From a bacterium (GTDB lineage: Bacteria; DUMJ01), in NCBI GenBank assembly GCA_012839925.1, contig DUMJ01000043.1, forward strand, positions 21,023 through 85,022: a stretch of 64,000 bases of DNA, written 5' to 3'. The notes below the pieces were generated by a model. That model was given only the letters and a program-made list of their open reading frames with translations, did no database searches and was not told where the DNA came from. Position 1 is the stretch's first letter. The number at the start of each line of letters is the position of its first letter. The position numbers and the translations under genes are program-made. Of the stretch, positions 30,878 through 63,619 are shown one piece after another.

Positions 30878-31083
30878 ACTGTTCACCTCTATAAAATAAG
30901 AATTTTAAAAATTCTAAACTTTCGCCTAAACTCAAGTACCATCTAATACTACCTTTTCAGGTTAACTTGCCTGGGTTACTCTTTAATCTTTTGATAACTT
31001 CTATGTCTCTTCTCAAGCATCACTTCCTTTTTAAACTACAGTTTTACCATTTACCCTTCCATTACTCAGCTCTGGATCTGAGA

Positions 31084-34000: not shown

Positions 34001-35016
34001 CATAAAGGACCTGTTATTGCATCGTGATGCTGGTTAAAAAGTAGTTGGCGCCAGGCTTTGTCCAGAGCTTTATCTGGATATTCAGCACCCAGATAATTTG
34101 CGATGGTGGCGAACTTCTCTGCATCCAGCAAGAGGTTTTCACCCTTTCGGTTGGCAAGCTTAAACTCTATCCGTGAAACACCTGTACCCTGGTGGTGCCA
34201 TTCGAAATCCCTGGCGGTTGTGGGAATCAAAAGTTTCCTTTCTTCTATCTCATGAAGAGTTTTTCTGAACCACTTTTCATGCCCTATCCCTGAGATGATA
34301 ATCCTTGGATTTCGGCTTTTAAGCTCGGCACATCTTCCCACAAGCCATGCAGATGGAGGTTTGAAATCTCCAGCATCGAGGCGTACATCAGATGTAAGCC
34401 CTAATGAGGCTATTTCATAAGAATGGTCCTCAAGATACTTGATAAATTCCTCTTCAAAACCACTTCCCCGTATCCCGTAATTCATTCTTTTGAAGAGAAG
34501 ACGAGTTCCGTCGAGGGATAGGTGCCAGAATACAGGTTCAGCTCCCCTTATATCCTTTGACCATATACAGCCAGTAAATCTTGATTTCCTCAGGATTTGT
34601 CCGAGTTGTGCTGAATGTCCAAACACATCCCAGGGCATATAAATCTCAGGTTTCGAATGAAGCACCCCTTCATGGAAAAGTCGACCATAGATGATATTCC
34701 GGATGAGACCTTCAGGTCCGATAAGAGTTTCGGCGGGCTGGCTATGAGAACCACCCGTTCCAACCCGACCGTCACGGATGAGTGATTTGAGAAATTCCCT
34801 GTTCCAGGGATATGTATCAAAATATGGCTTCAGGTATGTCAGTTCATGGAGAAAGACTCCATAATGTGGATCAGCCCTGCAGACCTGAATGTTCTGATCA
34901 GCGTCTCCAAGTAAAACTGTCGCATAGTCACGCTGGTCTTCAAGCCAAACTACGTCAGAGTGGAATCCCGGTACCACCCAGATCTCTTTAATAGAATCAG
35001 TAAAATTTTTACTCAT
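31084..35016 (-). CDS. GH38-family alpha-mannosidase-like protein, unusually large (1310 aa) with a long C-terminal extension
   Basis: The N-terminus IWVVPGFHSDVVWLED aligns with the GH38 metal-binding HxHxDxxW region. WDVFGHSAQLGQIL matches the GH38 DPFGHS motif. About 400 extra residues (~900-1310) have no recognised counterpart. The RBS is aggaggg. Confidence 0.65.
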   Translation of the reverse strand: MSKNFTDSIKEIWVVPGFHSDVVWLEDQRDYATVLLGDADQNIQVCRADPHYGVFLHELTYLKPYFDTYPWNREFLKSLIRDGRVGTGGSHSQPAETLIGPEGLIRNIIYGRLFHEGVLHSKPEIYMPWDVFGHSAQLGQILRKSRFTGCIWSKDIRGAEPVFWHLSLDGTRLLFKRMNYGIRGSGFEEEFIKYLEDHSYEIASLGLTSDVRLDAGDFKPPSAWLVGRCAELKSRNPRIIISGIGHEKWFRKTLHEIEERKLLIPTTARDFEWHHQGTGVSRIEFKLANRKGENLLLDAEKFATIANYLGAEYPDKALDKAWRQLLFNQHHDAITGPLCDRSYIDLMLGYREALEIGREVLDNSLDYIGKYIDTSGVRSENAVPFAVFNSLNWERTDVCRIEVSFPQGVDNFKVIDHTGKEVCFEILQVNRNGNGKIIKAEILILAEDVPSLGYKVFYAVPMEGSPAEIPSSEGNTIENDFFRITVDPTLGGGIVSLYDKLAGKELIPSNSKGSGIPGNELVALSEDPARHEPAWEIFTTGEKVFSRDYPASVNVKSGPLISKLIIKGDMKDCQRYQEIILYRGIPRVEFLTRLEGYSGAHDLYVITFPADLNGLEPVFEERFGATVKRKSKGYLDFRTWQWRNYSECGARRCYQWFGLGQNGMIECGDKGDEGYTQVVIGMVGLVTGHNPKVFTLSERIQESLIRRGIPVTPFFDDLDIERRSSLPVQDSCMPTENLNEDLPWGTSFRVALDLDGDNSYFQKVFETIPDDKKAYYREQLKTKGFACIISLDHDIPEGWTPLPVLLVGAKDIESLEKAIDSILCNIPQGLIKLPADSNATGISSTVDDYGLILLNTGNVLGSVEHDNTLVLFLMHTAAWGSTPWGKDRLPYMFVPEWKTHQFLYALYPHQGDWRSARAFRAGYEYNNPLIGRQLELHQGKIPPEEAFVKFEGDNLVMTAMKPLGFGTAALSKEVPESLRGIIIRAYEATGIESSGRISFFRPLVSAYRTNLLEEKEGDVSLSGKCSLDVETGPFSIETWCLIPTTWSILPDDRIKLGREKEIAQPVYLRYWRHNLGADPIGYCPVGVVLHGEVKTGVHIRQGGVSINTISVSVVNDYVDRTVSGEVEIITPEGWRSYPQTIEYNLEPGEHLTKDVVISFITDGSLRYRPQPDKGIITARLVHDGQVIEDIMEVGGENLLDYQVDFDEATGEITVSLRNPNCDEICGEVFVVSPIELWSKELTGQISLGCISPRSRGFSLPGNGAIDLSFKLELPEEDPQALPSSAWAIVKLAYNGKVSYIPVFGNAIRYE

Positions 35017-35195: not shown

Positions 35196-36512
35196 ATGGA
35201 AGAATATATACCATATGAGTTGAAGGGCAAAGAACTTCTGGAGGTTATAAACCTTGGTTCAAAGTTTAGCAAAGAGGAGTCTATAGAGCTTAAATTTTAT
35301 GTAAAGACTACCGGAAATCTGGTCAAGGTAGCGCAGGATATAGCCAGAGACGAAACAACCGGACCCTGGGTAGGGCAGGGAGAACCTACCCAATTATTTA
35401 TCCGATCTCAGGCAGATGTTGATAGGATAGAGAGATACGGTGAAAAAGAAGGAGTTATTTATATAAGAACACCCCTTTTCAATATTTCCAGTGAGACAGA
35501 CCCTCTATACCAGTTTATTATGCTTGCGGTAGGGGGACCCGTGCTTGAATTTGTTTATTATCAGGAGGTCGCGCTTCTGGATTTTTCTTTTCCCAGAAAT
35601 TTCCTGGAAAGATTCCCCGGACCAAAGTTTGGTATAAATGGGGTGAGGAAACTGTTAAATCTTAAGGATGGAGAACCTATAATAGGCACAATTGTGAAAC
35701 CCTGTGCTGGTCTTACCCCCAGAGAAGTAGCGGAAAAATGTTATCAATCTGCTTTAGGAGGGGTGATGTTTATAAAGGATGATGAAAAGATGCTTGGTCC
35801 AGACTATTGTCCCTTGGAAGAAAAGGTAAAACTTGTCTCTCAGGCTTTAAAGAGGGCAGAGGAGGAAACCGGTAGAAAATGTCTCTATGCACCACATATT
35901 GTTGCTAGGGCTGACAAGATTAAAGATGTGGCAAAGAGGGCTATAGAATGGGGAGCCACTGCATTAATGTTTAATGCGGTCCTGGGTCATACCTATGAAG
36001 CTCTCAGTATTCTGGCTGAGGATAAGGAGATAGATGTTCCTCTTTATGCCCATTCTGGTGGAAGATCAGGGCTTTCTACCGGACCAAGAAGGATAGACGA
36101 TACTGTGATAGCAAAGCTACTGCGGTACAGTGGAGCAGATTTCTTCCAGCATGGGGTTTTTGGTATGAAAGAGATGCATGTTGCCTCTCTGGATGACGGA
36201 CTCCTCCATAACCTTGTCAGAGTTATGAGAGAAGATGTGGGCGTAAGAGACACGATACCTGTAGCTGCAGGTGGTCTGGGTGTAACCAATGCTGGAATTA
36301 ATCTTAAAGAGCATAAAGACGAAAGATTTGGTTATAGTGTGGCTCTTTTAGCTGGTTCAAATATTCTGAAGCATCCAGATGGTCCCAAAGCTGGAGCGAC
36401 AGCTATGCATCAGGCAGTTCAGGCTTACTATGAAAAGGGGATAACTGAAAAGGGGCAATTGAAAGAGTATGCCATTAAGAGAGGGTGGGAAGAATTACTG
36501 AAGATATTATAG
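35196..36512 (+). CDS. RuBisCO large-subunit-like protein (form IV-type RLP)
   Basis: 438 aa. GTIVKPCAGL aligns with RuBisCO GTIIKPKLGL, keeping K175 but with K177 replaced by Cys. GGVMFIKDDE keeps K201, D203 and E204. FFQHGVFGMKEM keeps the H327 and K334 equivalents. PVAAGGLGV has S379 replaced by Ala, and LLAGSNILKHP replaces the GGG motif with AGS. The RBS is aggagga. Confidence 0.8.
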   Translation: MEEYIPYELKGKELLEVINLGSKFSKEESIELKFYVKTTGNLVKVAQDIARDETTGPWVGQGEPTQLFIRSQADVDRIERYGEKEGVIYIRTPLFNISSETDPLYQFIMLAVGGPVLEFVYYQEVALLDFSFPRNFLERFPGPKFGINGVRKLLNLKDGEPIIGTIVKPCAGLTPREVAEKCYQSALGGVMFIKDDEKMLGPDYCPLEEKVKLVSQALKRAEEETGRKCLYAPHIVARADKIKDVAKRAIEWGATALMFNAVLGHTYEALSILAEDKEIDVPLYAHSGGRSGLSTGPRRIDDTVIAKLLRYSGADFFQHGVFGMKEMHVASLDDGLLHNLVRVMREDVGVRDTIPVAAGGLGVTNAGINLKEHKDERFGYSVALLAGSNILKHPDGPKAGATAMHQAVQAYYEKGITEKGQLKEYAIKRGWEELLKIL

Positions 36513-48786: not shown

Positions 48787-50688
48787 ATGTCAAAAGGTAA
48801 AGCAAGAAAGTTTTTAACAAGTTTATTTGTACTTCTTTTTAGTGTTGTCCTTGTTGGAGAGGTAAGTTTTGCTCAATTACCAGTTGATATTCCCAGAAAT
48901 GAAACTCTGATACTGGATCAAATCTTTAGATATGGTCTTCCAAGGAATTTTAACCTGTGGAATCCAAACGCTGCGAACCCTACTAGGCAGGGATTGGTTT
49001 TTGATACTTTATGGTATATTGACCAGCAGACCGGTAAGTGGATAAATGCGCTGGCCAAAGAGCCTCCTACCTATAATAAAGATTATACAGAGATGACGGT
49101 TAAGTTACGAGATGGAATATACTGGAGTGATGGTGTTAAGTTTACTGCAGATGATGTGGTCTTTACTATTCAGAATATTAAGAAGACTCCAGGAATGCTC
49201 TGGAATGCACAATTTGATCTATATGTAGATAGTGTCCGTAAGGTCGATGACTTTACGGTGGTTATAAAACTGAAAGAACCTTATCCAAGATTTGATTCTC
49301 TATTTACATCCAGATATAATGCATGTTATATTCAACCTAAACATGTCTTTGAGAAAGTTGAAGATCCATTAAGATTTACTTTTTATCCTCCGGTATCTCT
49401 GGGAGCTTATGTCCTCAAAGATTCAGATCCTGCCGGCTACTGGGAACTCTATGAGAGAAGGAAGGATTGGAGTAGAACAAGTACTGGAATAGTTACTAAG
49501 AAGCCAGGTCCAAGGTATGTTCTGACGATTTTTTATGGTCCTAACGAGAAGAAAGTTGCTGCTATGATACAGCATAATCTTGATGTATTGATGGATCTTG
49601 ATATCGAGGCATTTCAAACTCTTATAAAGAGAAATTCTTATGCTCGTTCTTGGTATAAGGATTTCCCATGGGCATGGGGAGATGAGATAGACCATAGGTT
49701 CTTTGGATTTAATCTGGAAAAAGCTCCTTATAACATAAAGGATGTTAGATGGGCTTTAGCTTTAGCATTAGATATAGTTAAATTGAATACCGATTACATA
49801 GGTGGGGTTACTAGAGTTACTCCTATACCTCAACCTGCAACATCTTTTCATATGAAATATTATCATAAGCCCTTGCTACCATGGTTAAGAGATTTTAAGA
49901 TTGAAGTGGCTAATAACGAGTATTTCAAGCCATTTGATGCATCTGTACCAGAACGCTTGGTCAAGTGGGCTAAGGACCAGGGTTATACTGTTAGTGGTAA
50001 ACCACAGGATGTCTTTGGAGTTGGATGGTGGAAATATGCTCCTGAGGTATCAGAGAAGCTATTGACAAAGCATGGATTTAAACGTGGTAAAGATGGTAAA
50101 TGGTTATTGCCTGATGGTACTCCTTGGAAGATTCCCATTATAGCCTGCCCGGATGAAGTTGATGTCTTTAGATTGGCAATTGGAGCTGCTGATCAGTGGA
50201 AGAAATTTGGCATAGATGTGACTATAGAATCTCTGGAGAGAGATCCGTATTATGTGAAGCAGAGAATGGGGGACTTCGTCTGTACATCTAGCTGGGGTAT
50301 GGCAGATGGTGGTGGCGCAAGTGCAATAATAGATAAATGGCCATTTGCTTACTTTTTACATTCTGATTACTATGTCCCTACAGGACAATCCGCTAATGCT
50401 GGTAATTCCTTAAGAATAAAGTCTAAAGAGGTTGATAATCTTTTAGAGAAGATGGGGGCATTGAGTCCAAATGATCCCAAGATATTGGAGCTGGGAAGAG
50501 ATTGGATGAAGTTATTTGTAGAGAATATGTGGGGTATACCTACCCTCAGTTTTAAGAAGTTTGTAACGGTAGATAATTATTACTGGACTAATTTCCCCAC
50601 CGCAGAAAATCCTTATGGTCAACCCTGTTACTGGTTTATGGGGGGAAGATTTATACTACCAAATATGAGGCAAACTGGCAGAAAGTAA
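48787..50688 (+). CDS. ABC transporter family-5 solute-binding protein (first gene of a complete Opp/Dpp-like operon)
   Basis: 633 aa with a signal peptide. Family-5 SBP signatures are present. It is divergent from the three orphan SBP paralogs. The RBS is gaggagg. Confidence 0.85.
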   Translation: MSKGKARKFLTSLFVLLFSVVLVGEVSFAQLPVDIPRNETLILDQIFRYGLPRNFNLWNPNAANPTRQGLVFDTLWYIDQQTGKWINALAKEPPTYNKDYTEMTVKLRDGIYWSDGVKFTADDVVFTIQNIKKTPGMLWNAQFDLYVDSVRKVDDFTVVIKLKEPYPRFDSLFTSRYNACYIQPKHVFEKVEDPLRFTFYPPVSLGAYVLKDSDPAGYWELYERRKDWSRTSTGIVTKKPGPRYVLTIFYGPNEKKVAAMIQHNLDVLMDLDIEAFQTLIKRNSYARSWYKDFPWAWGDEIDHRFFGFNLEKAPYNIKDVRWALALALDIVKLNTDYIGGVTRVTPIPQPATSFHMKYYHKPLLPWLRDFKIEVANNEYFKPFDASVPERLVKWAKDQGYTVSGKPQDVFGVGWWKYAPEVSEKLLTKHGFKRGKDGKWLLPDGTPWKIPIIACPDEVDVFRLAIGAADQWKKFGIDVTIESLERDPYYVKQRMGDFVCTSSWGMADGGGASAIIDKWPFAYFLHSDYYVPTGQSANAGNSLRIKSKEVDNLLEKMGALSPNDPKILELGRDWMKLFVENMWGIPTLSFKKFVTVDNYYWTNFPTAENPYGQPCYWFMGGRFILPNMRQTGRK

Positions 50689-51775: not shown

Positions 51776-52642
51776 ATGTCTGCATTTAAGGAATTACTCA
51801 AAACTGATAGAAGATTTCTTATAGGTTTCTTTATAATTGTAACTGTCATCATACTGGCTTTTATGTCTTTCTTCTCGCCATATAAACCAGATGAACGTCA
51901 CGTACTTCCTAAAGATCAGTCTCCTTCTCTTCAACATCCTCTTGGCACAAGTTCACTTGGGCAGGATATATTCTGGTTATTAACATTTGCGATAAAGAAT
52001 TCGCTCATAATAGGGCTCCTTGCCGTATTCTTTTCAAGGATAGGTGCTATTGCAATTGGTTTACTTTCTGGATATATAGGAGGTAATACTGATAAAGTAT
52101 TAACGACATTAGCAGATAGTTTTATCGTTCTACCACGTTTACCAATCTTAATACTCCTCTCCTTTGCTTTTAGAAGCAACTTGAACTTTTTAACTATGGC
52201 TTTTTTGCTTGCCTTTTTAGACTGGGCATGGCCTTCAAAGAGGTATAGGTCACAGATTTTAAGCTTAAAAGAGATGGAATTTACGACTACTGCAATATTT
52301 TCTGGCAGGAGAACTCTTGGGGTAATATTAAAAGAACATATACCCTTTCTTATCCCTTATATAATGGCTGACTTTATAAGTGGATTTTTATGGGCTATAG
52401 GGATGGAAATTACCCTATCTGTTTTGGGACTCTCTAATTTAGATACCCCTACCATAGGGACAATGATTTATTGGGCGAATTATTATCAGGCTATGCTTAA
52501 AGGAACTTGGTGGTGGATTGGTCCGCCTGTCATCGCATTAATCATTACAGTTATCGGATTTTATCTTCTATCTGTAAGCATAGGTAACTTCCTTGATCCT
52601 AGAACGAGGATTCAGAGGATAGGAGGATGGAGGACTGAATGA
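51776..52642 (+). CDS. Opp/Dpp-type ABC permease (DppC/OppC-like)
   Basis: 288 aa TM protein. It overlaps the downstream ATPase gene by 4 nt. Confidence 0.85.
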   Translation: MSAFKELLKTDRRFLIGFFIIVTVIILAFMSFFSPYKPDERHVLPKDQSPSLQHPLGTSSLGQDIFWLLTFAIKNSLIIGLLAVFFSRIGAIAIGLLSGYIGGNTDKVLTTLADSFIVLPRLPILILLSFAFRSNLNFLTMAFLLAFLDWAWPSKRYRSQILSLKEMEFTTTAIFSGRRTLGVILKEHIPFLIPYIMADFISGFLWAIGMEITLSVLGLSNLDTPTIGTMIYWANYYQAMLKGTWWWIGPPVIALIITVIGFYLLSVSIGNFLDPRTRIQRIGGWRTE

Positions 52643-53655
52643 GATCGAACCCTTTATCGATAGTTAAGGTGGAAGAGCTAAAAGCATACTACGTGTCAGA
52701 GTCTTATGGGATTAATAGTGTTGTTAAGGCTGTTGATGACGTTTCTTTTGAGATATATGAAGACGAGATCCTGGGAATTGCTGGGGAATCAGGTTGTGGT
52801 AAGACTACCCTGTTAAAAACACTTCTGGGTACAATTAAACCCCCGCTTTCTATATTTGGAGGTAGGATATTCTACAGAATAGAGGATGAGTATAGAGATA
52901 TTCTCTCTTTTAGAGAAGGAGAACTTAGAGATATAAGATGGAAGATAGTTTCTTACATACCACAGGGGTCGATGAGTGTCCTCAATCCGGTGAGGAAGAT
53001 AAAGGATACATTCTTGGATTTTATGGAAGCACATAGACCTGATATCAGTAAGAGTGAATTTGATTCTCTTGTTAAGAATTACCTAGGGGCTCTTGGTCTA
53101 CCCACAGAAGTTTTGGATTCTTATCCCCATCAGCTTTCTGGTGGGATGAGGCAGAGGGTCACAATTGCCCTGTCTACCATCTTTAAGCCAAAGATTGTAT
53201 TGGCGGATGAACCGACTACCGCCTTAGATGTTGTTGTTCAAAGAGGTATCTTACAACTTCTGAGAAAGATCCAGAGGGAAGAGAAAAATACTCTGGTTGT
53301 GGTCTCCCATGATATGGGGGTACATGCTCGTATAAGTGATAGAGTTGGAATTATGTATGCCGGTAAGATAATAGAAATTGGTAACACTGAAGAGATATAT
53401 ACCAATCCTCTCCATCCGTATACGAGATATTTGATAAGTTCTTTACCAAAGATAGGAGATAAGGCTTATAGGACTGGCGTTCCCGGTAGTCCTCCATCAC
53501 TTTCAAACCTGCCAGCTGGATGTCGTTTTCAGGATCGATGTCCTGAGATAAAAGATATATGCAGGGAAGAGGAGCCATCTCTAGTTGAAGTGAATGATAA
53601 TCATAAGGTAGCCTGTTTTCTCGTATCGAAGGGAGAAGAAAACTATGAATCATAA
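52639..53655 (+). CDS. Opp/Dpp-type ABC ATPase (DppD/OppD-like) with C-terminal oligopeptide-transporter domain
   Basis: 338 aa. Walker A (GESGCGKTT), the signature LSGGMRQR and Walker B (VLADEPTTALD) are present. Confidence 0.9.
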   Translation: MRSNPLSIVKVEELKAYYVSESYGINSVVKAVDDVSFEIYEDEILGIAGESGCGKTTLLKTLLGTIKPPLSIFGGRIFYRIEDEYRDILSFREGELRDIRWKIVSYIPQGSMSVLNPVRKIKDTFLDFMEAHRPDISKSEFDSLVKNYLGALGLPTEVLDSYPHQLSGGMRQRVTIALSTIFKPKIVLADEPTTALDVVVQRGILQLLRKIQREEKNTLVVVSHDMGVHARISDRVGIMYAGKIIEIGNTEEIYTNPLHPYTRYLISSLPKIGDKAYRTGVPGSPPSLSNLPAGCRFQDRCPEIKDICREEEPSLVEVNDNHKVACFLVSKGEENYES

Positions 53656-54622
53656 TAATAAATTACTTTTTATTAAAAATTTAACAAAGATTTTTAGCGC
53701 AGGAAGTTTTCTTTTTAAGAGTAATATAGTTGCAGTAAATAATGTCTCACTTGAGTTAAACGCCCAAAGAGCTGAAATATTTACCCTGGCAGGGGAAAGT
53801 GGGAGTGGTAAGACAACTCTTGCTCGAATAATCCTTGGGTTGGTTCGTCCCACTTCTGGAACCATACTATATAAGGGCAGAGATATAACTCAGATAAAAA
53901 GTGCTAAGGATTGGAAATGGTTTACCAGAGAAGTACAACCTATTTCGCAGAATCCCTTTGATACTTTTAGCCCATTGAACAAGGTAGAGACGTATCTTTA
54001 TGATACCGCTATAAATTATAATATAGTTACCAATAAATCCGAAGTTTACAATATTTTAGATGAAAAACTAAAAGCGGTTGGGCTTTCTTGGGATGAGGTA
54101 AGGGGTAAATATCCGAATGAGTTCTCTGGAGGACAGCTACAGAGGCTTTCTATAGCCAGGGCTATTATTACAAATCCCTCTCTGATAGTGGCAGACGAAC
54201 CTGTCTCTATGATAGATGCATCTCTACGAATGTCCATAGTTAACCTTTTTAAGAATCTTAAAGAGCAGTTTAATGTAAGTGTTATATATATTACCCATGA
54301 TCTTGCCACCGCATATTATATAAGTGATCGGATAGCAATAATGCTGAGAGGTTCTATAGTAGAATCCGGTCCAGTAGAAAAAGTTTTGAACGCACCATTA
54401 CATCCCTATACGAAATTGCTTAAACAATCAATACCTGAACCTACTATAGATGTGCAGTGGGAAGAAGAAATTCAGTTATCTGTCACTGAGATCAAAGAAT
54501 TTACTGCGTCTGGATGTAAGTTTGCAGCCAGATGTCCTTATGTAATGGAAACCTGTAAGACTAAAGAACCAGAAGAAACTTTTGTAGATGAAAGAGCTGT
54601 AAGATGTTATTTATATAAGTGA
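53645..54622 (+). CDS. Opp/Dpp-type ABC ATPase (DppF/OppF-like)
   Basis: 325 aa. Walker A (GESGSGKTT), the signature FSGGQLQR and Walker B (IVADEPVSMID) are present. Confidence 0.9.
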   Translation: MNHNNKLLFIKNLTKIFSAGSFLFKSNIVAVNNVSLELNAQRAEIFTLAGESGSGKTTLARIILGLVRPTSGTILYKGRDITQIKSAKDWKWFTREVQPISQNPFDTFSPLNKVETYLYDTAINYNIVTNKSEVYNILDEKLKAVGLSWDEVRGKYPNEFSGGQLQRLSIARAIITNPSLIVADEPVSMIDASLRMSIVNLFKNLKEQFNVSVIYITHDLATAYYISDRIAIMLRGSIVESGPVEKVLNAPLHPYTKLLKQSIPEPTIDVQWEEEIQLSVTEIKEFTASGCKFAARCPYVMETCKTKEPEETFVDERAVRCYLYK

Positions 54623-54706: not shown

Positions 54707-56194
54707 TTACTCACTGAGGCTAAGTTTTACTGCCTGCTTCCATCCACCGTATAGTCTTTCTCTTTCCGCTGAACTCATCTCTGGTATAAATACCCTGTCT
54801 ATCTCTCTCAGAGATGTAAGTTCATCTGGATTATTCCATATTCCTGTTGCCAGACCGGCAATAAATGCTGATCCAAGTGCTGATAGTTCCTCAATTTTAA
54901 CCCTGACTACCGGAACATTTAAAATATCTGCCTGAAATTGCATTAGAAAGTTGTCTCTTGTAGGTCCACCGTCAACTCTAAGCTCTTTTAAAGTTATGCT
55001 TGATTCTTCTGTCATCAACTCTATAATATCTCTTATCTGATAAGCTATTGATTCTTCGGCAGCCCTTATAATATGCGCCTTTCTGGTATTTGATGACATA
55101 CCTGTAATTATCGCTCTTGCGTCACTATCCCAATATGGTGCTCCTAATCCAACGAATGCAGGGACAAAGTATACGCCATTGTTATCATCCACTGTACTTG
55201 CTAAAATTCCAGCCTCTTTTGAATTAGCAAGAAGCTCTAGATTTTCTACCAGCCACTTTATTGTGGCACCGGTATAATTTATATTTCCCTCCAGAACATA
55301 AGAAATTCCATTTTTAGTATTCCAGCCTATAGATGTTACTATACCGCTGGCAGGAATTACCAATCTATCTCCTATATTCATCATTACAGAAGAGCCAGTG
55401 CCATATGTTGCTTTAGCCATACCCTTTTCAAAACAGGCTTGACCAAAGAGTGCAGCATGGGAGTCTCCTGTGATTCCTGTTACAGGAATACTTCTCCTGA
55501 TCTTGTTTCCTAGTGAAAAATATCCAAATATCTCATCAGATTTTTTCACCATGGGCATCATAGATTCTGGTATAGTAAATATCTCTAAAAGTTCTTTGTC
55601 CCAGCTTAATTCTCTAATATTGAACAGCTGGGTACGGCTGGCATTGGTGTAATCGGTCAGGTGGTTTTCACCATTTGTAAGTTTCCATATAAGCCAGGAA
55701 TCAATAGTTCCACATAGTAATTCTCCTGATTCAGCCCTCTCTCTGGCTGATTCTATATTATCCAGGATCCACTTTATTTTGGATGCTGAGAAGTAAGGTG
55801 ATAAGACTAGTCCGGTTTTTTCTTTTATAGTTTTCTGGAGACCTTCCCTCTCTAACTTTTTACATATCTCTGAGCTACGCTGACATTGCCATACAACAGC
55901 GTTGCATACCGGTTTTCCGGTCTTTTTACTCCAGACCACAGCGGTTTCTCTCTGATTTGTTATAGATAATGCAGCTATATCTTCTATAGCCACCCCACTT
56001 TCCTGGATCACTTTATTAATAGCTATAAGTGTATTTTCATATATCTCTTCAGGATTGTGCTCTACCCAACCTGGCTTTGGATAATATTGCTTATGCTCAA
56101 TATTAAATCTGTGAACCAGTTTTCCCACACTGTTAAAAATAATTGCTTTTGTACTGGAGGTGCTCTGGTCTATAGATAGGATATATCTTTCCAT
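54707..56194 (-). CDS. glpK: Glycerol kinase
   Basis: 495 aa. It aligns colinearly with E. coli GlpK: YPKPGWVEHNP, ITNQRET, GKPVCNAVVWQCQRS, TDYTNASRTQLFNI, GMAKATYGTGS, NGVYFVPAFVGLGAPYWD, LRVDGGPTRDNFLMQFQADIL and YGGWKQAVK. Confidence 0.9.
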   Translation of the reverse strand: MERYILSIDQSTSSTKAIIFNSVGKLVHRFNIEHKQYYPKPGWVEHNPEEIYENTLIAINKVIQESGVAIEDIAALSITNQRETAVVWSKKTGKPVCNAVVWQCQRSSEICKKLEREGLQKTIKEKTGLVLSPYFSASKIKWILDNIESARERAESGELLCGTIDSWLIWKLTNGENHLTDYTNASRTQLFNIRELSWDKELLEIFTIPESMMPMVKKSDEIFGYFSLGNKIRRSIPVTGITGDSHAALFGQACFEKGMAKATYGTGSSVMMNIGDRLVIPASGIVTSIGWNTKNGISYVLEGNINYTGATIKWLVENLELLANSKEAGILASTVDDNNGVYFVPAFVGLGAPYWDSDARAIITGMSSNTRKAHIIRAAEESIAYQIRDIIELMTEESSITLKELRVDGGPTRDNFLMQFQADILNVPVVRVKIEELSALGSAFIAGLATGIWNNPDELTSLREIDRVFIPEMSSAERERLYGGWKQAVKLSLSE

Positions 56195-56200
56195 AGAAAC

Positions 56201-57658
56201 CTATTCCTTAATCTGTTTAAGCCTTATTGCAATATAGGGCTTTGATGGAAGACATATTTTAAACTCACCCTCATATATCCCAGGGACTTCTTCTACTGTC
56301 ATATCCCAGGTGTCTATAATCTCAACCTTGAATCTTATCCCCGAAGGTAACTTAAATATTCTATATGCCGGCTGATTAAAACCAAGATAGATAATATAAT
56401 ATTCTCCCTCTATTCCACCACATGGTACATCGGTATACATATGTATCGGATTTATCCCGTAATTTGGTCCTTCCTCTATTATTCTTCTTAAAAATGCTAT
56501 TCTCTCTGGACTCTTGCCGTATAACTTCCCACCTTTTGACCACCACAGTATATCCTCTGGATGGAGATATGTTTCACCATGCCCTACATATCCACCTCTA
56601 ACATATCCCTCCCAGAATCTCCTTACCATTTCTTCGCCGGTTATGCTTCCCCATCCTCTATGTATATTTCCTTCATAGGCACATTCATCTATCACCACAG
56701 GTTTTTTGTATGTTTCTCTCCAGGTATCAGTATTCTCAGCAGTTTTATACCAGTCCACTCTCTGAATGCTGCAGTGGGTTACCCATGGTTTTGTAAAATC
56801 ATACATAACTCTACAGTTATGTATGGACCTCAAATGTCCATAGGGGTCATTTTCCCTTATTATTCTGGCAAATCTCTCCCAATCCAACAGGGTTTTGGAT
56901 CGCATGATGTCATACTCGTTTGCCAGCGACCACCATACATTTCTGAATGCAGAAAAACGGGCTATTACATATTTGAGATATCTATCATCAAATTCTCCAT
57001 CCATTGTTGAGAAACCCCAGCGGTCATAAGGATGAAAGAGTATCATATCTGCCTCTATTCCCAAATCCTGCAGGTCCTTTATCCTTACCTCCATATGCCT
57101 GAAGAATTCGACGTTAAACCTGCTAAAATCCCAACCTCTCTCTGGAGAGCCTTCAAAGGGATAATACTCAGGCTCATTATGGTTAAACTCATAATGTTTT
57201 GGGAATACACACATCCTCAGTTTATTAAATGGTGATTTTTTCAGGGTATCCAGTGTCTGTTTCTCAAGCTCTTCTCCCTGATGTACCCAGGCGTAACATG
57301 TTGTTCCTATTGGATAATAAGGCGTTCCATCTTCGTAGGCAAAGTGAAATGTATTCACAACCCTTACAGGTCCGTGGTTATTTTGAGAGGGGGGCACACA
57401 TAAAAATTTACCTTCTATCCTATCCAGTGAGTTGATGTTACTTGCTGTTGTAAAGCTCCATTCTCCTTCTGAGTCGGGCATAAATCTTATCTTATAGGTT
57501 CCATCTCCATCATAAAAACCTTCAACTTCAACCTTTTTATTTTTGTATTTGAATTCTGCCCTTATACTGATGTCTAAAAAGGGATTACCCTCAGATGGTC
57601 CATTTAATGTAGTTTCGAATATCCCCCACCTCTCAACTTTCATAAGACTTTCTTCCAT
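56201..57658 (-). CDS. DUF5060 + DUF4038 protein (GH140-like putative glycoside hydrolase), cytoplasmic
   Basis: 485 aa. The N-terminus VERWGIFETTLNGPSEGNPFLDISIRAEFKYKNKKVEVEGFYDGDGTYKIRFMPDSEGEW matches my recollection of the DUF5060 Ig-like domain preceding a DUF4038 TIM-barrel. There is no signal peptide. It lies 6 nt upstream of glpK. Confidence 0.45.
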   Translation of the reverse strand: MEESLMKVERWGIFETTLNGPSEGNPFLDISIRAEFKYKNKKVEVEGFYDGDGTYKIRFMPDSEGEWSFTTASNINSLDRIEGKFLCVPPSQNNHGPVRVVNTFHFAYEDGTPYYPIGTTCYAWVHQGEELEKQTLDTLKKSPFNKLRMCVFPKHYEFNHNEPEYYPFEGSPERGWDFSRFNVEFFRHMEVRIKDLQDLGIEADMILFHPYDRWGFSTMDGEFDDRYLKYVIARFSAFRNVWWSLANEYDIMRSKTLLDWERFARIIRENDPYGHLRSIHNCRVMYDFTKPWVTHCSIQRVDWYKTAENTDTWRETYKKPVVIDECAYEGNIHRGWGSITGEEMVRRFWEGYVRGGYVGHGETYLHPEDILWWSKGGKLYGKSPERIAFLRRIIEEGPNYGINPIHMYTDVPCGGIEGEYYIIYLGFNQPAYRIFKLPSGIRFKVEIIDTWDMTVEEVPGIYEGEFKICLPSKPYIAIRLKQIKE

Positions 57659-57815
57659 ATTAACCTCCTGTTATTATAATATTGGGACTACTTTTATAGA
57701 TGCCTTTTTCTATCAGGTTAAGAGCCTCTTCTAAGGACCCGAATTTCTCTTCTTTAATCCACTACAGTATAAATAACATATTCATAGCTACCAGTCAACA
57801 GCTTCTAATTTTTCC

Positions 57816-58913
57816 TTATCCCCAATCCATCTCTGCTTTTCTTATCAGTTCTTTTGCGACCTCTAATTCTGTTATTGGAAATAGGAGATACAGTCCGTCT
57901 GCTCCATAACGTTTTACTATTTTATCTGCTTTTTTTATCCAATCATCAAAATTTCCTTCTTCAATACTGATCCAGAGAGATTTTCCAGCGTTTCTTACCA
58001 TATCATATACGGGATACCAGTCTTCACTACCTCCATCTGGTTTACCTGCCCCTGGAGTCCACTGGATAGCATCTACTTTTTCCACTTTAAGTATGGCAGG
58101 CAGATGTTTTATAGCATCTGGTCCATCGAGGTGATATAAAACATAATCCAGTCTATTACACTGATATGTAAGTGACGGTATAAAGAACTCATAAAACTGT
58201 TTCGGAGACATAACAGCTGAAAAATCACACTGGACTTTAGCGGTCTTACCAGGTCCCCATATATCGAATACTGTATAGCTACTGCTTCCATCTGTACATT
58301 TTACGATTTCATACATGGCATCATAGTATTTAAAGTAGAGCTCATCTGTCTGCTTTATATATTTTTTTACTATATCAGGGCTATCAATAAGGTCATATAT
58401 AAATTTTTGTGCCCCCCTTAAAGAGGAAAGAATATCTATGCTCTCTATTATATCCGGTATATTTACGAGGAAATCATCGCCTGCCAACTCCTTAGCTTTA
58501 CGGATCAGGCTCAGGTGGAGTTTCCACCAGTAGTTATCTTCATCATATCTCAGAGGTCCCCAATCAGACCAGTCAGAAGTAACACATGGTGTATACCATA
58601 CCGTATCCCAGGAGAATACAGGTTCTGAGCCTAAATACGTAGCCATTGAGCCTGGTCCTATATTTATATTTAGAGAGGGAAATGATTCTGCCAGGAAGAG
58701 GTGAGTTCGGCAAAAATTACGTAATTCTTTTACTTTTCTATCTACATCTAGATGATATTCCATTGGGGTTCTGGGAGGTTCTATTATTTCTAAGGGCTCT
58801 ACAGGGTCTTCCAGTCTTCCTATAACCCTCATCATAGGTCTATCTATCCTGGAGTGCCTCCACCAGGCGACAAATCGACTTTTAGTTTCTTCCCAATTAT
58901 CTTTATATCTCAT
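57816..58913 (-). CDS. URO-D/MtaA-superfamily protein, uncharacterised subfamily (paralog A)
   Basis: 365 aa. IDRPMMRVIGR resembles the URO-D DRxPVWxMRQAGR motif. NIGPGSMATYLGSE resembles GFAGAPWTLMTYMVEG. LRGAQKFIYDLIDSPDIV resembles the LRGxE...DxxxxPExV region. The YHLDGP and IQWTPGAG motifs are shared with paralog B. It lies downstream of the split transketolase. Confidence 0.4.
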   Translation of the reverse strand: MRYKDNWEETKSRFVAWWRHSRIDRPMMRVIGRLEDPVEPLEIIEPPRTPMEYHLDVDRKVKELRNFCRTHLFLAESFPSLNINIGPGSMATYLGSEPVFSWDTVWYTPCVTSDWSDWGPLRYDEDNYWWKLHLSLIRKAKELAGDDFLVNIPDIIESIDILSSLRGAQKFIYDLIDSPDIVKKYIKQTDELYFKYYDAMYEIVKCTDGSSSYTVFDIWGPGKTAKVQCDFSAVMSPKQFYEFFIPSLTYQCNRLDYVLYHLDGPDAIKHLPAILKVEKVDAIQWTPGAGKPDGGSEDWYPVYDMVRNAGKSLWISIEEGNFDDWIKKADKIVKRYGADGLYLLFPITELEVAKELIRKAEMDWG

Positions 58914-58952
58914 AAATTTCCTCCTAGCCCTTTATTGCTCCCGCAGTGATTT

Positions 58953-59906
58953 TTATCCCCTCCTCAACTCTTTCAATACAATATTACTGATACCTTCTGG
59001 AGTGATGTTATAATGCTCTAGTATCTCCTTTTGAGAGCCAGTTATCGAAAACTCATCAGGTATGCCTGCTATATACATTTTTACCGGAAGTCTCCTGATT
59101 AATACTTCTGCCACAGCAGACCCCAGCCCTCCCTTTATATTGTGCTCTTCAACAGTAACTATGAATTCAGTTTTTCTGGCAGATTCTATTATAATTTCTT
59201 CATCTATCGGCTTAACTGTATGCATATCTATAACTCTAGTATATATACCTTTATCCCTCAGAATTAAGGCAGCATCATAGGCTGTTTTGACAACTTCTCC
59301 TGTGGCAATTATAGTGGCATCAGCTCCATCTGATAACAGGTTAGCCTTGCCTATGTTGAAAAAGATATTCTCATCATAGACATTTTCAACAGGATTCCTT
59401 CCCATTCTGATATAAGCAGGCTTATTGTAAGATACAAGAGATTTAACCAGAGCCTTTGTCTGATTTACATCGCAGGGGAGTATTACAGTCATATTGGGAA
59501 TGGCTCGCATAAAGGCTATATCTTCTAAGGAGTGATGGGTAGAACCTAAGGGACCATAACTGACACCTCCGCTTACTCCAATTATCTTAACATCCCTGTT
59601 TGTATAGGCAACATCTATCTTTATCTGCTCAATACTCCTTGTACTTAAAAAACAGGCTGGAGCAAAAACGAATGGCTTCTTTCCACAACCTGCAAGTCCA
59701 CTTGCTATACTTATCAGGTTCTGTTCTGCTATCCCAACGTCTATAAACTGTCCTGGAAGATGTTCTGCAAAATTTTCTACACTGGCAGACCCTCTGGAGT
59801 CAGAAGTTAAAACAACGATATCCCTGTCTTCTTTAGCCAATTCAAATAATGCCTCGCTAAAAGCCTTTCTACACGGCAGAACCGATGTCTTCTCTGACAT
59901 TATCAT
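58953..59906 (-). CDS. Transketolase, C-terminal subunit (pyrimidine-binding + C-terminal domains)
   Basis: 317 aa. Motifs: FIDVGIAEQNLISIASGLA, FVFAPACFLSTRSIEQI and GPLGSTHHSLEDIAFMRAIP. Confidence 0.9.
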   Translation of the reverse strand: MIMSEKTSVLPCRKAFSEALFELAKEDRDIVVLTSDSRGSASVENFAEHLPGQFIDVGIAEQNLISIASGLAGCGKKPFVFAPACFLSTRSIEQIKIDVAYTNRDVKIIGVSGGVSYGPLGSTHHSLEDIAFMRAIPNMTVILPCDVNQTKALVKSLVSYNKPAYIRMGRNPVENVYDENIFFNIGKANLLSDGADATIIATGEVVKTAYDAALILRDKGIYTRVIDMHTVKPIDEEIIIESARKTEFIVTVEEHNIKGGLGSAVAEVLIRRLPVKMYIAGIPDEFSITGSQKEILEHYNITPEGISNIVLKELRRG

Positions 59907-60726
59907 CCTCCTGATTTAATTCCCTGATCATTCTGGTATACTCTTCTGAGGTAGGAATCTTGTGATGCCATTCTGGTTTGTCCTCAATGAATGATACCCC
60001 TTTACCCTTTACAGTATGAGCCAGTATGAGAGTGGGTTTATTATATTTTACTGGCACACTCTCAAATACTGTTACTAATTGACTAATGTTGTGTCCGTTC
60101 ACCTCCACCACTTCCCAGCCAAAGGAAGCCCACTTTGCAGACAGATCTCCTAAACTCATAACATACTCGGTAGGTCCGCCAATTTGAAGTTTATTCCTGT
60201 CCACTATACCAATAAGATTGTCCAGTTTATAATGCTTGGCACACATAGCTGCTTCCCATATAGAACCCTCTGCCTGTTCTCCATCTCCCATCAATACATA
60301 CACCTTATAATCTTTTTTATCCATCTTCCCCGCAAGAGCCATCCCTACCCCAAGAGAGAGTCCATGCCCTAAAGAGCCGGTATTAGCTTCTACTCCAGGG
60401 ATTTTGACCGTTGGATGACCTGTTAATCTCGAATTGAATTTACAGTAGGTTTTCAGTTCTTCTCTATCTATAAATCCTAGATCTGCCAGAATAGTATAAT
60501 ATCCCTCCACACTATGTCCCTTGCTTAAGATAAATCTATCTCTGTCGGTCCAGACGGGATTCCTAGGGTCTATCCTCAGGATCTTATAATAAAGTGTAAC
60601 TAGTATGTCGGTAGATGAAAGAGACCCTCCAATATGTCCTGTCCCTGAATGATAAATCATATCCACTATATTCCTTCTTATCTCTTTTGCCTTATTCTCC
60701 AGGAATGAGATGTCTATACCTTCCAT
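59869..60726 (-). CDS. Transketolase, N-terminal subunit (TPP-binding)
   Basis: 285 aa. Motifs: GHIGGSLSSTDILVTLYYK, SKGHSVEGYYT and GSLGHGLSLGVGMALA. It overlaps the C-terminal subunit gene by 38 nt. Confidence 0.9.
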   Translation of the reverse strand: MEGIDISFLENKAKEIRRNIVDMIYHSGTGHIGGSLSSTDILVTLYYKILRIDPRNPVWTDRDRFILSKGHSVEGYYTILADLGFIDREELKTYCKFNSRLTGHPTVKIPGVEANTGSLGHGLSLGVGMALAGKMDKKDYKVYVLMGDGEQAEGSIWEAAMCAKHYKLDNLIGIVDRNKLQIGGPTEYVMSLGDLSAKWASFGWEVVEVNGHNISQLVTVFESVPVKYNKPTLILAHTVKGKGVSFIEDKPEWHHKIPTSEEYTRMIRELNQEDDNVREDIGSAV

Positions 60727-60841: not shown

Positions 60842-60871
60842 TTGCAGATATTACAGGGATTATTGTATAAT
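60842..60871 (+). promoter_or_regulatory. Sigma-70-type promoter (ttgcag-N18-tg-tataat) upstream of the FMN riboswitch
   Basis: An extended -10 tgtataat at 60864-60871 and a -35-like ttgcag at 60842-60847 are seen directly. Confidence 0.5.
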
Positions 60872-60895
60872 ATCTCAAGAATTGAATGTTGATAG

Positions 60896-61020
60896 TGTTA
60901 CCTTCGGGGATGGGTGAGGAGTATTTACTCCAACTCCCTACCGGCGGTAAAGCCCGCAAGCCTTTATGGCAGAACTGGTGAAATTCCAGTGCCGACGGTA
61001 TAGTCCGGATGGGAGAAGGT
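60896..61020 (+). ncRNA. FMN riboswitch (RFN element) aptamer
   Basis: The sequence contains ccttcgggg...ctaCCGGCGGTAAAGCCCGCAAGC...GGTGAAATTCCAGTGCCGACGGTATAGTCCGGATGGGAGAAGG. These are the hallmark conserved blocks of the RFN element (compare B. subtilis ribD leader ...GACCGGCGGTAGTAAAGC...GCCGACAGTGAAAGTCTGGATGGGAGAAGGA). It lies on the same strand as, and immediately 5' of, an ECF S-component gene. Confidence 0.8.
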
Positions 61021-61040
61021 ATTTTTTATTGGTTAAAAAT

Positions 61041-61070
61041 AGCCCCGAAGTTCTTCGGGGCTTAAATTTT
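61041..61070 (+). terminator. Riboswitch expression-platform intrinsic terminator (agccccgaa-gttc-ttcggggct + taaatttt)
   Basis: A 9-bp GC stem with a U-rich tail lies 20 nt after the aptamer and just before the RBS aaggagg (61073-61079). The stem-arm sequence cttcgggg also occurs at the 5' end of the aptamer (60902-60909). Confidence 0.6.
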
Positions 61071-61087
61071 ATAAGGAGGTTTGTGCT

Positions 61088-61624
61088 ATGCGTAGGAGTA
61101 TCAAAATATATGTTGGAGGAGCGTTATTGTCTGCTATCGGATTTATACTGATGCTCTTTCAGGTTCCTCTTATACCGGAGGCAAATTTCTTACTCTATGA
61201 TCCAGGAGATGTCGCTGTTCTTCTTGCTGGTATTGTATATGGACCCTGGATAGGATTTCTCTCTATTTTAATAAAGAATATCCTTTACTTTATTATAAAA
61301 GGTCTGGGTGGTCCTATAGGTGTCCTTATGAATACCATAGCAACTGGAGGTTTTGTAATTGTACCTGCCCTTATCCTTAAATATAATAGTAAAATTCTTA
61401 TCCCAGCTCTTCTGGCGGGAGTGGCTGCCAAAACATTAATAATGATACCGGTAAATCTGGTTTTTACACCTATGTACACAGGACTTCCAGTGGCAGAAGT
61501 ATGGAATCTTATAAAGGTGGCAGTTATTCCGTTTAATATAGTTCAAGGATCAATTAATATGCTCTTGTTTTTACTGATCTATGGGGTGTTAGAGCGGTAT
61601 TTAAAAAAGATGGTAGCCAAATGA
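61088..61624 (+). CDS. ribU: ECF-transporter substrate-specific (S) component, riboflavin-type (RibU-like)
   Basis: 178 aa with about six TM segments. LSAIGFILMLFQVPL is typical of ECF S-components. It sits directly behind an FMN riboswitch. No EcfA/EcfT genes are adjacent, so this is a group-II S-component. Confidence 0.65.
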   Translation: MRRSIKIYVGGALLSAIGFILMLFQVPLIPEANFLLYDPGDVAVLLAGIVYGPWIGFLSILIKNILYFIIKGLGGPIGVLMNTIATGGFVIVPALILKYNSKILIPALLAGVAAKTLIMIPVNLVFTPMYTGLPVAEVWNLIKVAVIPFNIVQGSINMLLFLLIYGVLERYLKKMVAK

Positions 61625-61682: not shown

Positions 61683-62741
61683 TTACCTCACACTTTTAAG
61701 GAATTCCCTTGCACCAGTTTCACTATCAAACCAGGTAGATATTAACACCCCTTTACCCGAAAATTCATCAAAGATCCTGGAGATATTATTTTTGTCATCA
61801 AATGACTGGAGGACTAATAATTTATTGTGGGCTAATATCTTTTTATAGATGGGAAACCATCTGGGAGAGTCACACTGGGGGTTACCCTCTCCTGGAACCC
61901 ACTGTATTCCAGTTAATTCTGGAATATCCAGCAGGATGTCAAGATGTGGTATCTCTCCCGGACCATCTAGATGATATATGGAGTAATCCAGCCATTTACA
62001 CTGTTCTATTAAATAAGGAGCTACAAACTTTTCAAACATCTTTGGAGATATCATATAGGAGAAGTCACACTGTAATGGGTACCATCTTTTATGACACCAT
62101 ATACCCATCCATGCCGATGTCCCCTCTTGATACTCCTTTATCATACTGTATAAATCGTCATATACCTTAAACCAGGACCTCAGTATCTTATCTGACATAT
62201 ATAGCACTCTCTCCGGCTCTTCAATCAGGTCTATTAAAAGATTCTTAGCACCTCTAAAAGATGAGAGAACATCTAAAACTCCCCCAATATCTGTTGTCCC
62301 AACTATAAACTTATCCTTTCCCCTCTCGATTGATAATCTGGTGATATATTTTGTATACTGCCACCACTCACCATCTTCTTTAAATTCCAATCTTTCTACA
62401 TCTTCCCAAGGGAGTGGACACTCGAACCAGGAAGTATTGGTATTTCCGTCAAACTTCAGGAAATCAGTATAATATGAGGCTAAGACGCCAGGTCCCAGAT
62501 TCATCCAGAGGTTAGGGAATGATTCTCCTCCAAAGAAAGTCTCACTGCATCTTTTTTCAAACAGGTCTATATTTTTCTCTGGACAAGATTTATACCTTAA
62601 GAATCCCCACCCATCATAACCCTCATAATCTTTTATCCCCTCTTTAGGACTTGCTACCTGCAGAAGAGGATAATCCAGCTCTTTATTCCACCACACTTTA
62701 TATATCTCTTTAATCTTATCCCAATCTTCTCTGTAAAACAT
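61683..62741 (-). CDS. URO-D/MtaA-superfamily protein, uncharacterised subfamily (paralog B)
   Basis: 352 aa. It shares motifs with paralog A throughout: FPNLWMNLGPGVLASY against FPSLNINIGPGSMATY, LSSFRGAKNLLIDLIEEPERV, QCDFSYMISPK, YHLDGP and IQWVPGEG. Confidence 0.4.
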   Translation of the reverse strand: MFYREDWDKIKEIYKVWWNKELDYPLLQVASPKEGIKDYEGYDGWGFLRYKSCPEKNIDLFEKRCSETFFGGESFPNLWMNLGPGVLASYYTDFLKFDGNTNTSWFECPLPWEDVERLEFKEDGEWWQYTKYITRLSIERGKDKFIVGTTDIGGVLDVLSSFRGAKNLLIDLIEEPERVLYMSDKILRSWFKVYDDLYSMIKEYQEGTSAWMGIWCHKRWYPLQCDFSYMISPKMFEKFVAPYLIEQCKWLDYSIYHLDGPGEIPHLDILLDIPELTGIQWVPGEGNPQCDSPRWFPIYKKILAHNKLLVLQSFDDKNNISRIFDEFSGKGVLISTWFDSETGAREFLKSVR

Positions 62742-62806: not shown

Positions 62807-63619
62807 ATGATAAAATTATTGGCTTTCGATCTGGATGGGACTATCCTTGAAAATGGACTGGTAATCCCTGAAGAAACTAAAGAGGTATTGAATAAAATAG
62901 TGAATTTAGGTGTAAAGATTTCAACCGCCAGTGGACGCAAAATAGAGGACCAGATAAATATTATAAATTCTAATGGGCTGGGGGATGGGATGGGTTATCC
63001 TCATTCGCTTATAGTAAATGAATCTCAGATATACCTGTTAGATGGGGATCAGTATATCCCTCTGGATTCCTGGAATAGAAGGGTATCCGAAGAGTGGAAA
63101 GAACTCTATCCTTTAGCAGAAAGAATAATTTTAGAGGAGATGGGTAGACTAAAGAGTATGGGTGTAGGAGTTTCTATCCATATAATAGGAGAGGTCTCCC
63201 TGATTAGAAATATGGTGGCTGTGAGATTTAGCAGTATAGAGGAGGCAAAGAATTACGAGAAACAGTTAAGAGAAAAACTAAAATCCTCAGGGGTGCCTCT
63301 CTGGAGTAATTATAATTTTAGTCTGGTCCAGATACTTCCTCCATCGGCAGGTAAGGGGAATACAGTCTTAACTCTATCTAGGCATCTTGGATTACTACCA
63401 GAAGAGGTTCTGGTTATTGGAGATTCGGGGAATGATAAGGATATGCTTGATGGGAGATTTGGATTTCGGGTTGCTACAGTATCTAATGCTGAGCCAGAGA
63501 TAAAAGAAACTGTTGAAAGAAATGGTGGGTATGTAGCGGAAAATCCTGTAAGTAGAGGTATAATAGAGATTGTAAATAAACTTATACTGGGAGAGATAAA
63601 ATATGAGACTGGAATTTAA
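62807..63619 (+). CDS. HAD-superfamily (Cof-like, type IIB) phosphatase
   Basis: 270 aa. Motif I is FDLDGTIL. The C-terminal region VLVIGDSGNDKDML carries motifs III and IV. Confidence 0.8.
   Translation: MIKLLAFDLDGTILENGLVIPEETKEVLNKIVNLGVKISTASGRKIEDQINIINSNGLGDGMGYPHSLIVNESQIYLLDGDQYIPLDSWNRRVSEEWKELYPLAERIILEEMGRLKSMGVGVSIHIIGEVSLIRNMVAVRFSSIEEAKNYEKQLREKLKSSGVPLWSNYNFSLVQILPPSAGKGNTVLTLSRHLGLLPEEVLVIGDSGNDKDMLDGRFGFRVATVSNAEPEIKETVERNGGYVAENPVSRGIIEIVNKLILGEIKYETGI

Follow-up and report, generated by a model that had tools for sequence, protein, structure and literature searches.

Does the leader RNA in front of a putative riboflavin-uptake gene in an uncultured bacterium work as a conventional flavin mononucleotide (FMN) riboswitch, and is the pairing by which it would switch an unusual one? 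The locus lies in a 64,000-nucleotide stretch of DNA from a bacterium of the lineage DUMJ01 (assembly GCA_012839925.1, contig DUMJ01000043.1, positions 21,023 to 85,022 of the forward strand), hereafter the window, in whose numbering coordinates are given. A reading of this DNA made from its letters, here called the sequence-only reading, had proposed an FMN riboswitch (RFN element) with a terminator-type expression platform upstream of a gene for a RibU-like, six-transmembrane S-component of an energy-coupling factor (ECF) transporter, and had called the long-range anti-terminator that it deduced there atypical. We find that the locus very probably comprises a solitary ribU (fmnP) gene, carried by an uncultured bacterium of biogas fermenters, whose transcription is under the control of a canonical FMN-sensing OFF riboswitch, and we find the anti-terminator of this riboswitch to be typical of its class.

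With high confidence, then, this is a routine, conventional member of a well-known system, and as such already known. It matters little beyond correct annotation, in which ribU can be marked as an FMN-repressed riboflavin-uptake gene of this organism; that mark is useful for metabolic reconstruction, where it indicates riboflavin salvage or cross-feeding.

The FMN aptamer and its binding pocket

When the whole window was compared with Rfam by cmscan, a single match reached its gathering score: the FMN riboswitch family RF00050, at 60896-61024 on the forward strand. This match extends over the model from end to end (positions 1-138 of 138) and scores 106.2 bits (E = 1.1e-23) against a gathering score of 66.2, and the three RFN-element blocks that the sequence-only reading had named are present. 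The proposal of an FMN riboswitch at this locus is thereby borne out. The features of the aptamer are as follows.

60896..61024, forward strand: FMN riboswitch aptamer (RFN element) with helices P1-P6, from the RF00050 match and the fold
60899..60905, forward strand: 5' strand of P1, UACCUUC, pairing with 61015-61021, from the cmscan structure, the inverted repeat and the fold
61015..61021, forward strand: 3' strand of P1, GAAGGUA, pairing with 60899-60905, on the same three grounds

All of the helices P1-P6 are present in the cmscan alignment, in which the outermost U-U of P1 is the sole non-standard pair, and an unconstrained minimum-energy fold of 60878-61024 also arrives at P1-P6. Folding the whole leader together with the start of the coding sequence (60880-61095) missed the aptamer, which was recovered when the coding sequence was left out or when growing transcripts were folded.

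In the numbering of the structure 3F2Q, FMN is contacted by G10, G11, G32, A48, G62, G84, A85 and A99 (PMC6298564). The equivalents of G10, G11, G32, G62 and G84 are all G in the window and those of A48, A85 and A99, which contact the flavin, are all A, that is, eight of eight are canonical. The positions were mapped through what we take to be the 3F2Q sequence, which gives all eight of the listed base identities. G10 and G11, which contact the phosphate, correspond to 60907-60908, inside the junction J1/2.

The aptamer of the Fusobacterium nucleatum impX gene (PDB 3F2Q, 2YIE, 6WJR) has the same junction and the same FMN-contact nucleotides. It differs in that the transporter encoded downstream belongs to the ImpX family and not to RibU, and in that the aptamer of the window has a minimal P3 and a 14-nucleotide hairpin in loop L2. 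This hairpin, GGAGU-AUUU-ACUCC at 60917-60930, is inserted within the UGA...AAYU motif of the loop. It was considered as a novelty and rejected, comparable L2 insertions being found in about 15% of the FMN aptamers that we sampled, many of them from Chloroflexota and Alicyclobacillus. We conclude with high confidence that the RNA is a canonical FMN riboswitch aptamer, and its pocket is predicted to bind FMN.

The switching helices

Most of what makes the leader a candidate switch is carried by one repeated octamer, CTTCGGGG. It stands at 60902-60909 and at 61053-61060, with its reverse complement at 61043-61050, the three places in the leader to which the sequence-only reading had drawn attention; the 64-kb window holds four matches in all against 0.82 expected, three of them within 160 nucleotides. 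The elements built from these copies, and the U-run that precedes them, are listed here.

60902..60909, forward strand: switching sequence CUUCGGGG, the 5' strand of the anti-terminator, spanning the end of the P1 5' strand (four nucleotides) and the start of J1/2 (four)
61022..61027, forward strand: run of six U directly after P1, matching TTNTTT, a candidate RNA-polymerase pause site before the decision point
61041..61072, forward strand: intrinsic terminator, a hairpin AGCCCCGAA-GUUC-UUCGGGGCU (61041-61062) followed by an interrupted U-tail UAAAUUUUAU
61043..61050, forward strand: CCCCGAAG, the 3' strand of the anti-terminator and the core of the terminator 5' arm

In the terminator scan the hairpin, written as DNA, is AGCCCCGAA-GTTC-TTCGGGGCT at 61041-61062, a perfect stem of nine pairs, six of them G-C, after which comes TAAATTTTAT; folded alone it has an energy of -15.5 kcal/mol. 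It begins 16 nucleotides after the aptamer, and both hairpin and tail are conserved in the orthologous leaders. With this hairpin, the U-rich tail that follows it to 61072 and the folds described below, the proposed terminator-type platform is upheld. The tail itself is unusual: an AAA or AAAA interruption directly after the stem (UUAAAUUUU at 61063-61072, and its counterparts in the orthologous leaders) is conserved across the clade.

The core of the terminator 5' arm is an exact complement of the first copy of CUUCGGGG, and folds of successively longer transcripts place the alternative helices in order. For a transcript that reaches 61024, the minimum-energy fold is the canonical P1-P6 aptamer, at -45.7 kcal/mol. 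When the transcript (60878-61052) includes the terminator's 5' arm and still lacks the 3' arm, the anti-terminator is the minimum-energy fold, at -54.6 kcal/mol against -50.3 for the state that retains P1, in line with the proposal that this arm is able to pair with the 5' end of the aptamer. By 61072, P1 together with the terminator has reached -63.4 kcal/mol, against -55.6 for the anti-terminator state. In these computed snapshots the passage from aptamer to anti-terminator to terminator is what a kinetically driven OFF switch would be expected to show, and kinetically driven switching has been reported for FMN riboswitches (PMC7573352).

To place this pairing among other FMN riboswitches, we drew from the GTDB species representatives a sample of 120 FMN riboswitch loci, using for retrieval a pattern confined to the aptamer's 3' core. 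In 64 of them a script was able to locate a downstream terminator as well as P1 and J1/2, and in each of these the entire leader was examined in 12-nucleotide windows for the best pairing partner of the terminator 5' arm. The best partner was the P1 5' strand with J1/2 in 54 of the 64 terminator-bearing riboswitches, where chance would give this 5' zone 12.5% (binomial p about 7e-39), and J6/1 with the P1 3' strand in only two. The pairing is further supported by covariation, the choice of A or G as the first nucleotide of J1/2 being linked to that of CCTGA or CCCGA in the arm of the terminator (12, 1 / 4, 8; Fisher p = 0.0036). Pairing of the 5' P1 and J1/2 segment of the aptamer with the terminator 5' arm is thus the rule for FMN riboswitches. 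It is also already known, aptamer residues 6-11 having been named 'the switching sequence' (PMC7573352), and the Bacillus subtilis and Lactococcus lactis models are described in the literature as using a long-range anti-terminator helix.

The description of the anti-terminator as atypical is accordingly not sustained, and pairing of P1 and J1/2 with the terminator arm should not be flagged as unusual in FMN riboswitches. In most other riboswitch classes it is the P1 3' strand that is the shared segment, and the impression of an atypical arrangement probably stems from those classes.

The same arrangement recurs in the orthologous loci. RF00050 is found at 98-117 bits directly upstream of seven of seven orthologues, whose proteins are 43-87% identical to that of the window and whose flanking genes differ. 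All eight leaders of the clade keep an anti-terminator of 7-11 base pairs, and because six of the eight extend it into the terminator loop, it appears to be selected in its own right, more than as a by-product of the symmetry of the hairpin. In the most distant orthologue (locus L010) the aptamer reads TCTTCAGGG and the terminator CCCTGAAGA...TCAGGG, a three-way compensatory change. At another of these loci, L009, the public call of the ribU orthologue (2501-3124, 207 amino acids) starts inside the aptamer (2382-2516), so that the call is probably about 30 codons too long.

A U-run of the TTNTTT type stands directly after the P1 3' strand in eight of the eight clade leaders (the window, L005 and L007-L012), as compared with 17 of the 120 general FMN leaders within 28 nucleotides. 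TTNTTT is the NusG pause motif that acts in B. subtilis fmnP (PMC11602163). The placement of the run suggests that a pause may be programmed here, ahead of the decision between the two helices.

Two B. subtilis leaders offer the closest models. At ribU/fmnP (ypaA), as in the window, an FMN aptamer lies in the leader of a solitary gene for a riboflavin-uptake ECF S-component, and a TTNTTT pause motif stands between the aptamer and the decision point. There too the terminator 5' arm pairs alternatively with aptamer nucleotides, and attenuation is FMN-dependent (PMC11602163). The platform of the window differs in being much more compact, with 16 nucleotides to the hairpin and 64 to the ATG, we found in the window no ligand-dependent hairpin that sequesters the Shine-Dalgarno sequence, and its L2 carries the inserted hairpin. 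The second model is the archetypal terminating RFN element, that of ribD (the rib operon), where stabilisation of P1 by FMN leads to the terminator. The ribD leader presumably uses the nearly identical pair UUCGGGGC / GCCCCGAA. At ribD, too, when FMN is lacking the terminator 5' arm joins the aptamer's 5' side in a long-range anti-terminator, under kinetic control (PMC7573352). Unlike ribD, the riboswitch of the window stands before a transporter gene and not a biosynthetic operon, its linker is shorter and its U-tract is interrupted.

From these elements we propose the following course of events. Transcription would start at about 60878, and the aptamer (60896-61024) would fold while it is being made. 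With FMN bound, P1 (60899-60905 with 61015-61021) would be locked and the J1/2 guanines at 60906-60909 held in the phosphate-binding pocket, so that the nascent CCCC would be denied a foothold; the terminator hairpin (61041-61062) would then form and the transcript would be expected to end, in vivo, in the U-rich tail before the ribosome-binding site. With FMN absent, the newly made CCCC (61043-61046) would pair with the free GGGG of J1/2, after which GAAG (61047-61050) would displace the last four pairs of P1, and the resulting anti-terminator of eight base pairs, enclosing the aptamer, would consume the terminator 5' arm and allow ribU to be transcribed. The choice would be kinetic, and through a polymerase pause at the U6 run after P1, FMN may gain time to bind.

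The ribU gene and the competing readings

The remaining features of the locus are a putative promoter upstream of the aptamer and the translation signals and coding region downstream of the terminator.

60842..60871, forward strand: putative sigma-70 promoter, TTGCAG at 60842-60847, an 18-nucleotide spacer and TATAAT at 60866-60871, found by eye
61073..61079, forward strand: Shine-Dalgarno sequence AAGGAGG, 8 nucleotides 5' of the ATG, kept in orthologues
61088..61624, forward strand: ribU (fmnP) open reading frame, ATG at 61088, 178 amino acids, a predicted riboflavin-specific ECF S-component

The aptamer ends 64 nucleotides before the ATG of ribU, on the same strand. A promoter at 60842-60871 would place the start of transcription at about 60878-60880, and the orthologous leaders have TATAAT at an equal distance from the aptamer; the -35 element TTGCAG matches three of the six positions of the hexamer, so the promoter is absent from the consensus-scan list. 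A perfect inverted repeat of 8 base pairs, AGATATTA / TAATATCT at 60846-60853 / 60868-60875, lies across this putative promoter between -35 and -10; it may be due to chance or be a protein-binding site.

The 178-residue protein scores above the cutoffs of two Pfam families, PF12822 for ECF transporter S-components (57.4 bits, cutoff 30.7) and PF07155 for the S-components of ECF-type riboflavin transporters (35.2 bits, cutoff 26.7). Among all PDB sequences it matches RibU of Thermotoga maritima (5kbw, E = 5.8e-18, residues 9-173 on 9-173; 5kc0, about 1e-17) and RibU of Staphylococcus aureus (3p5n, E = 1.3e-15, residues 11-174 on 18-188); no other S-component (neither ThiT, BioY, FolT nor PanT) appeared among the PDB matches, even at E <= 10. 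With these structurally characterised proteins (T. maritima 5KBW, 5KC0 and 5KC4; S. aureus 3P5N) it shares an end-to-end alignment, a similar length (178 against 181-190 residues) and the character of a multi-pass membrane protein; it differs from them in sequence, identity being about one third. The hydropathy profile shows a protein hydrophobic throughout, with some six hydrophobic segments over its 178 residues, and an AxxxA motif, ALLSA, at residues 12-16. AxxxA in helix 1 of group-II S-components serves docking on EcfT. The description of a RibU-like S-component with six transmembrane segments thus agrees with both family matches and with the structures retrieved, which are RibU only.

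An identical protein occurs in public biogas-fermenter metagenomes and in one metagenome-assembled genome, under the name 'ECF transporter S component' at NCBI and 'riboflavin transporter FmnP' at JGI. A homologue also lies immediately downstream of the aptamer and on the same strand in 32 of the 120 sampled FMN riboswitch loci, which makes the pairing of FMN riboswitch and ribU very common; one of these is in Bacillus mojavensis, of the B. subtilis group, where the gene is fmnP/ribU (32% identity, E = 8e-16). The gene in the window is ribU, for the riboflavin-binding S-component of a group-II ECF transporter, with binding and transport predicted from homology and from the conserved linkage to the FMN riboswitch.

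Several points weigh against a functional FMN-controlled ribU transcription unit. The promoter is putative. In the computed folds the ligand-free equilibrium favours the terminator state by about 8 kcal/mol, so that read-through would depend entirely on folding kinetics during transcription. The U-tail UAAAUUUUAU is broken by AAA directly after the stem and, this interruption being conserved in the clade, termination may be weak or may need NusA or NusG. An NCBIfam search with the 178-residue protein gave no match, and since its identity to characterised RibU is only about 30-35%, the assigned substrate specificity rests on homology together with the riboswitch linkage. Finally, a functional transporter is assumed, and no EcfA, EcfA' or EcfT was found among the open reading frames of the 64-kb window, whose sole ABC ATPases (52639-54622) are of the Opp/Dpp type with oligo_HPY domains. 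The genes of group-II ECF modules usually lie at other places in the genome, and their absence near an S-component gene is expected. No riboflavin biosynthesis (rib) genes were found in the 64-kb window either.

The interrupted U-tract and the U-run after P1, both present in every leader of the clade, could point to factor-dependent termination, assisted by NusG or NusA in pausing and termination, or to a hairpin that also dampens translation; we hold this as a tentative possibility, against which the odds stand. If true, the leader would be a very compact dual-level FMN switch, still a variation on mechanisms shown for B. subtilis fmnP. Somewhat less probable, and in our judgement unlikely, is that the main or an additional control is translational, with an FMN-dependent structure hiding the ribosome-binding site and the hairpin acting as no efficient terminator. 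The interruption of the U-tail UAAAUUUUAU in the whole clade would fit such control, as would the end of the hairpin lying only 10 nucleotides before the Shine-Dalgarno sequence; the hairpin itself, however, spans -47 to -26 relative to the ATG, mostly outside the ribosome footprint. When the full length is folded, a weak pairing is possible between the tail UAAAUUUU and GAGGUUUG, a segment overlapping the Shine-Dalgarno sequence, but this pairing involves four G-U pairs and can form in either state, and in the folds of the two states AAGGAGG lies in no helix that would depend on the ligand. Hiding of the ribosome-binding site was the first proposal for B. subtilis ypaA/fmnP, and fmnP is now described as combining translational repression with attenuation (PMC11602163). 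The switching architecture of the window is nevertheless that of terminator-type FMN riboswitches, and we prefer transcriptional control.

That the downstream protein is an S-component for another substrate, such as FMN, flavin adenine dinucleotide (FAD) or an unrelated vitamin, we consider very improbable. The general S-component family PF12822 does outscore the riboflavin-specific PF07155 (57.4 against 35.2 bits), but the latter is above its cutoff; there is no NCBIfam equivalog match, but at E <= 10 the protein finds three RibU sequences and no other solved structure. Members of COG3601 tied to other pathways are known (PMC6298564). The protein of the window, however, is homologous to that encoded behind the Bacillus fmnP riboswitch, and the FMN riboswitch is kept before seven of seven orthologues in differing neighbourhoods.

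We give almost no credence to the further idea that the RNA is one of the rare 'subtype 1' variants of the FMN motif (Atilho et al. 2019), which would not bind FMN and would serve another ligand and transporter substrate: such variants occur upstream of COG3601 transporter genes only, the family present here, but they swap the guanines that contact the phosphate and ribityl groups, mostly for adenines, and in Atopobium those that precede COG3601 genes are predicted to control translation (PMC6298564), whereas the window keeps all five guanines, has a terminator and scores 40 bits above the gathering score of the true FMN model; the candidate was rejected on the identities of its binding-pocket nucleotides.

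Neighbouring genes

A cluster of sugar and pentose genes (54707-60726, reverse strand) runs divergently from ribU. It includes a split transketolase, with the N-terminal subunit at 59869-60726 and the C-terminal subunit at 58953-59906, which also adjoins the distant ribU orthologue of L010. Also in the cluster are a carbohydrate kinase of the FGGY type (54707-56194) and a glycoside hydrolase (56201-57658) that is apiosidase-like and has DUF5060 and DUF5605.

The region from the transketolase to ribU is flanked by two paralogous proteins of about 355 residues, at 57816-58913 and 61683-62741, both on the reverse strand and 31% identical (E = 6e-55). Neither has a Pfam match even at E <= 1, and the protein at 61683-62741 is without a significant match among PDB sequences. 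Their family is large, with more than 1297 homologues, mostly called 'hypothetical'; a few have a URO-D (PF01208) match or a methyltransferase name, and the best match from a cultured organism, at 72% identity, is from Mahella australiensis. Genes of similar size that have no assigned family lie near the ribU orthologues of L005, L007 and L008.

Two genes downstream of ribU, after the convergent gene at 61683-62741, is a Cof-type HAD-IIB phosphatase (62807-63619, forward strand). A flavin link for this phosphatase, of the YcsE type, was considered and rejected: with the YcsE-related model the protein reaches 46.9 bits where the cutoff is 220, and the other orthologous loci do not show this proximity to ribU.

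Farther away, in an organism that has in other respects the look of a heterotroph fermenting sugars, an open reading frame at 35196-36512 (forward strand) carries the catalytic domain of the RuBisCO large chain (PF00016, 120.9 bits); its product is probably RuBisCO-like or of form III. The window also encodes four family-5 solute-binding proteins (SBP_bac_5) of 633-662 residues, at 13067-15052, 19377-21335, 28898-30886 and 48787-50688, and two glycosidases, one of GH116 (26276-28825) and one GH38-like (31084-35016). Together, the solute-binding proteins and glycosidases suggest a lifestyle of scavenging oligosaccharides or peptides.

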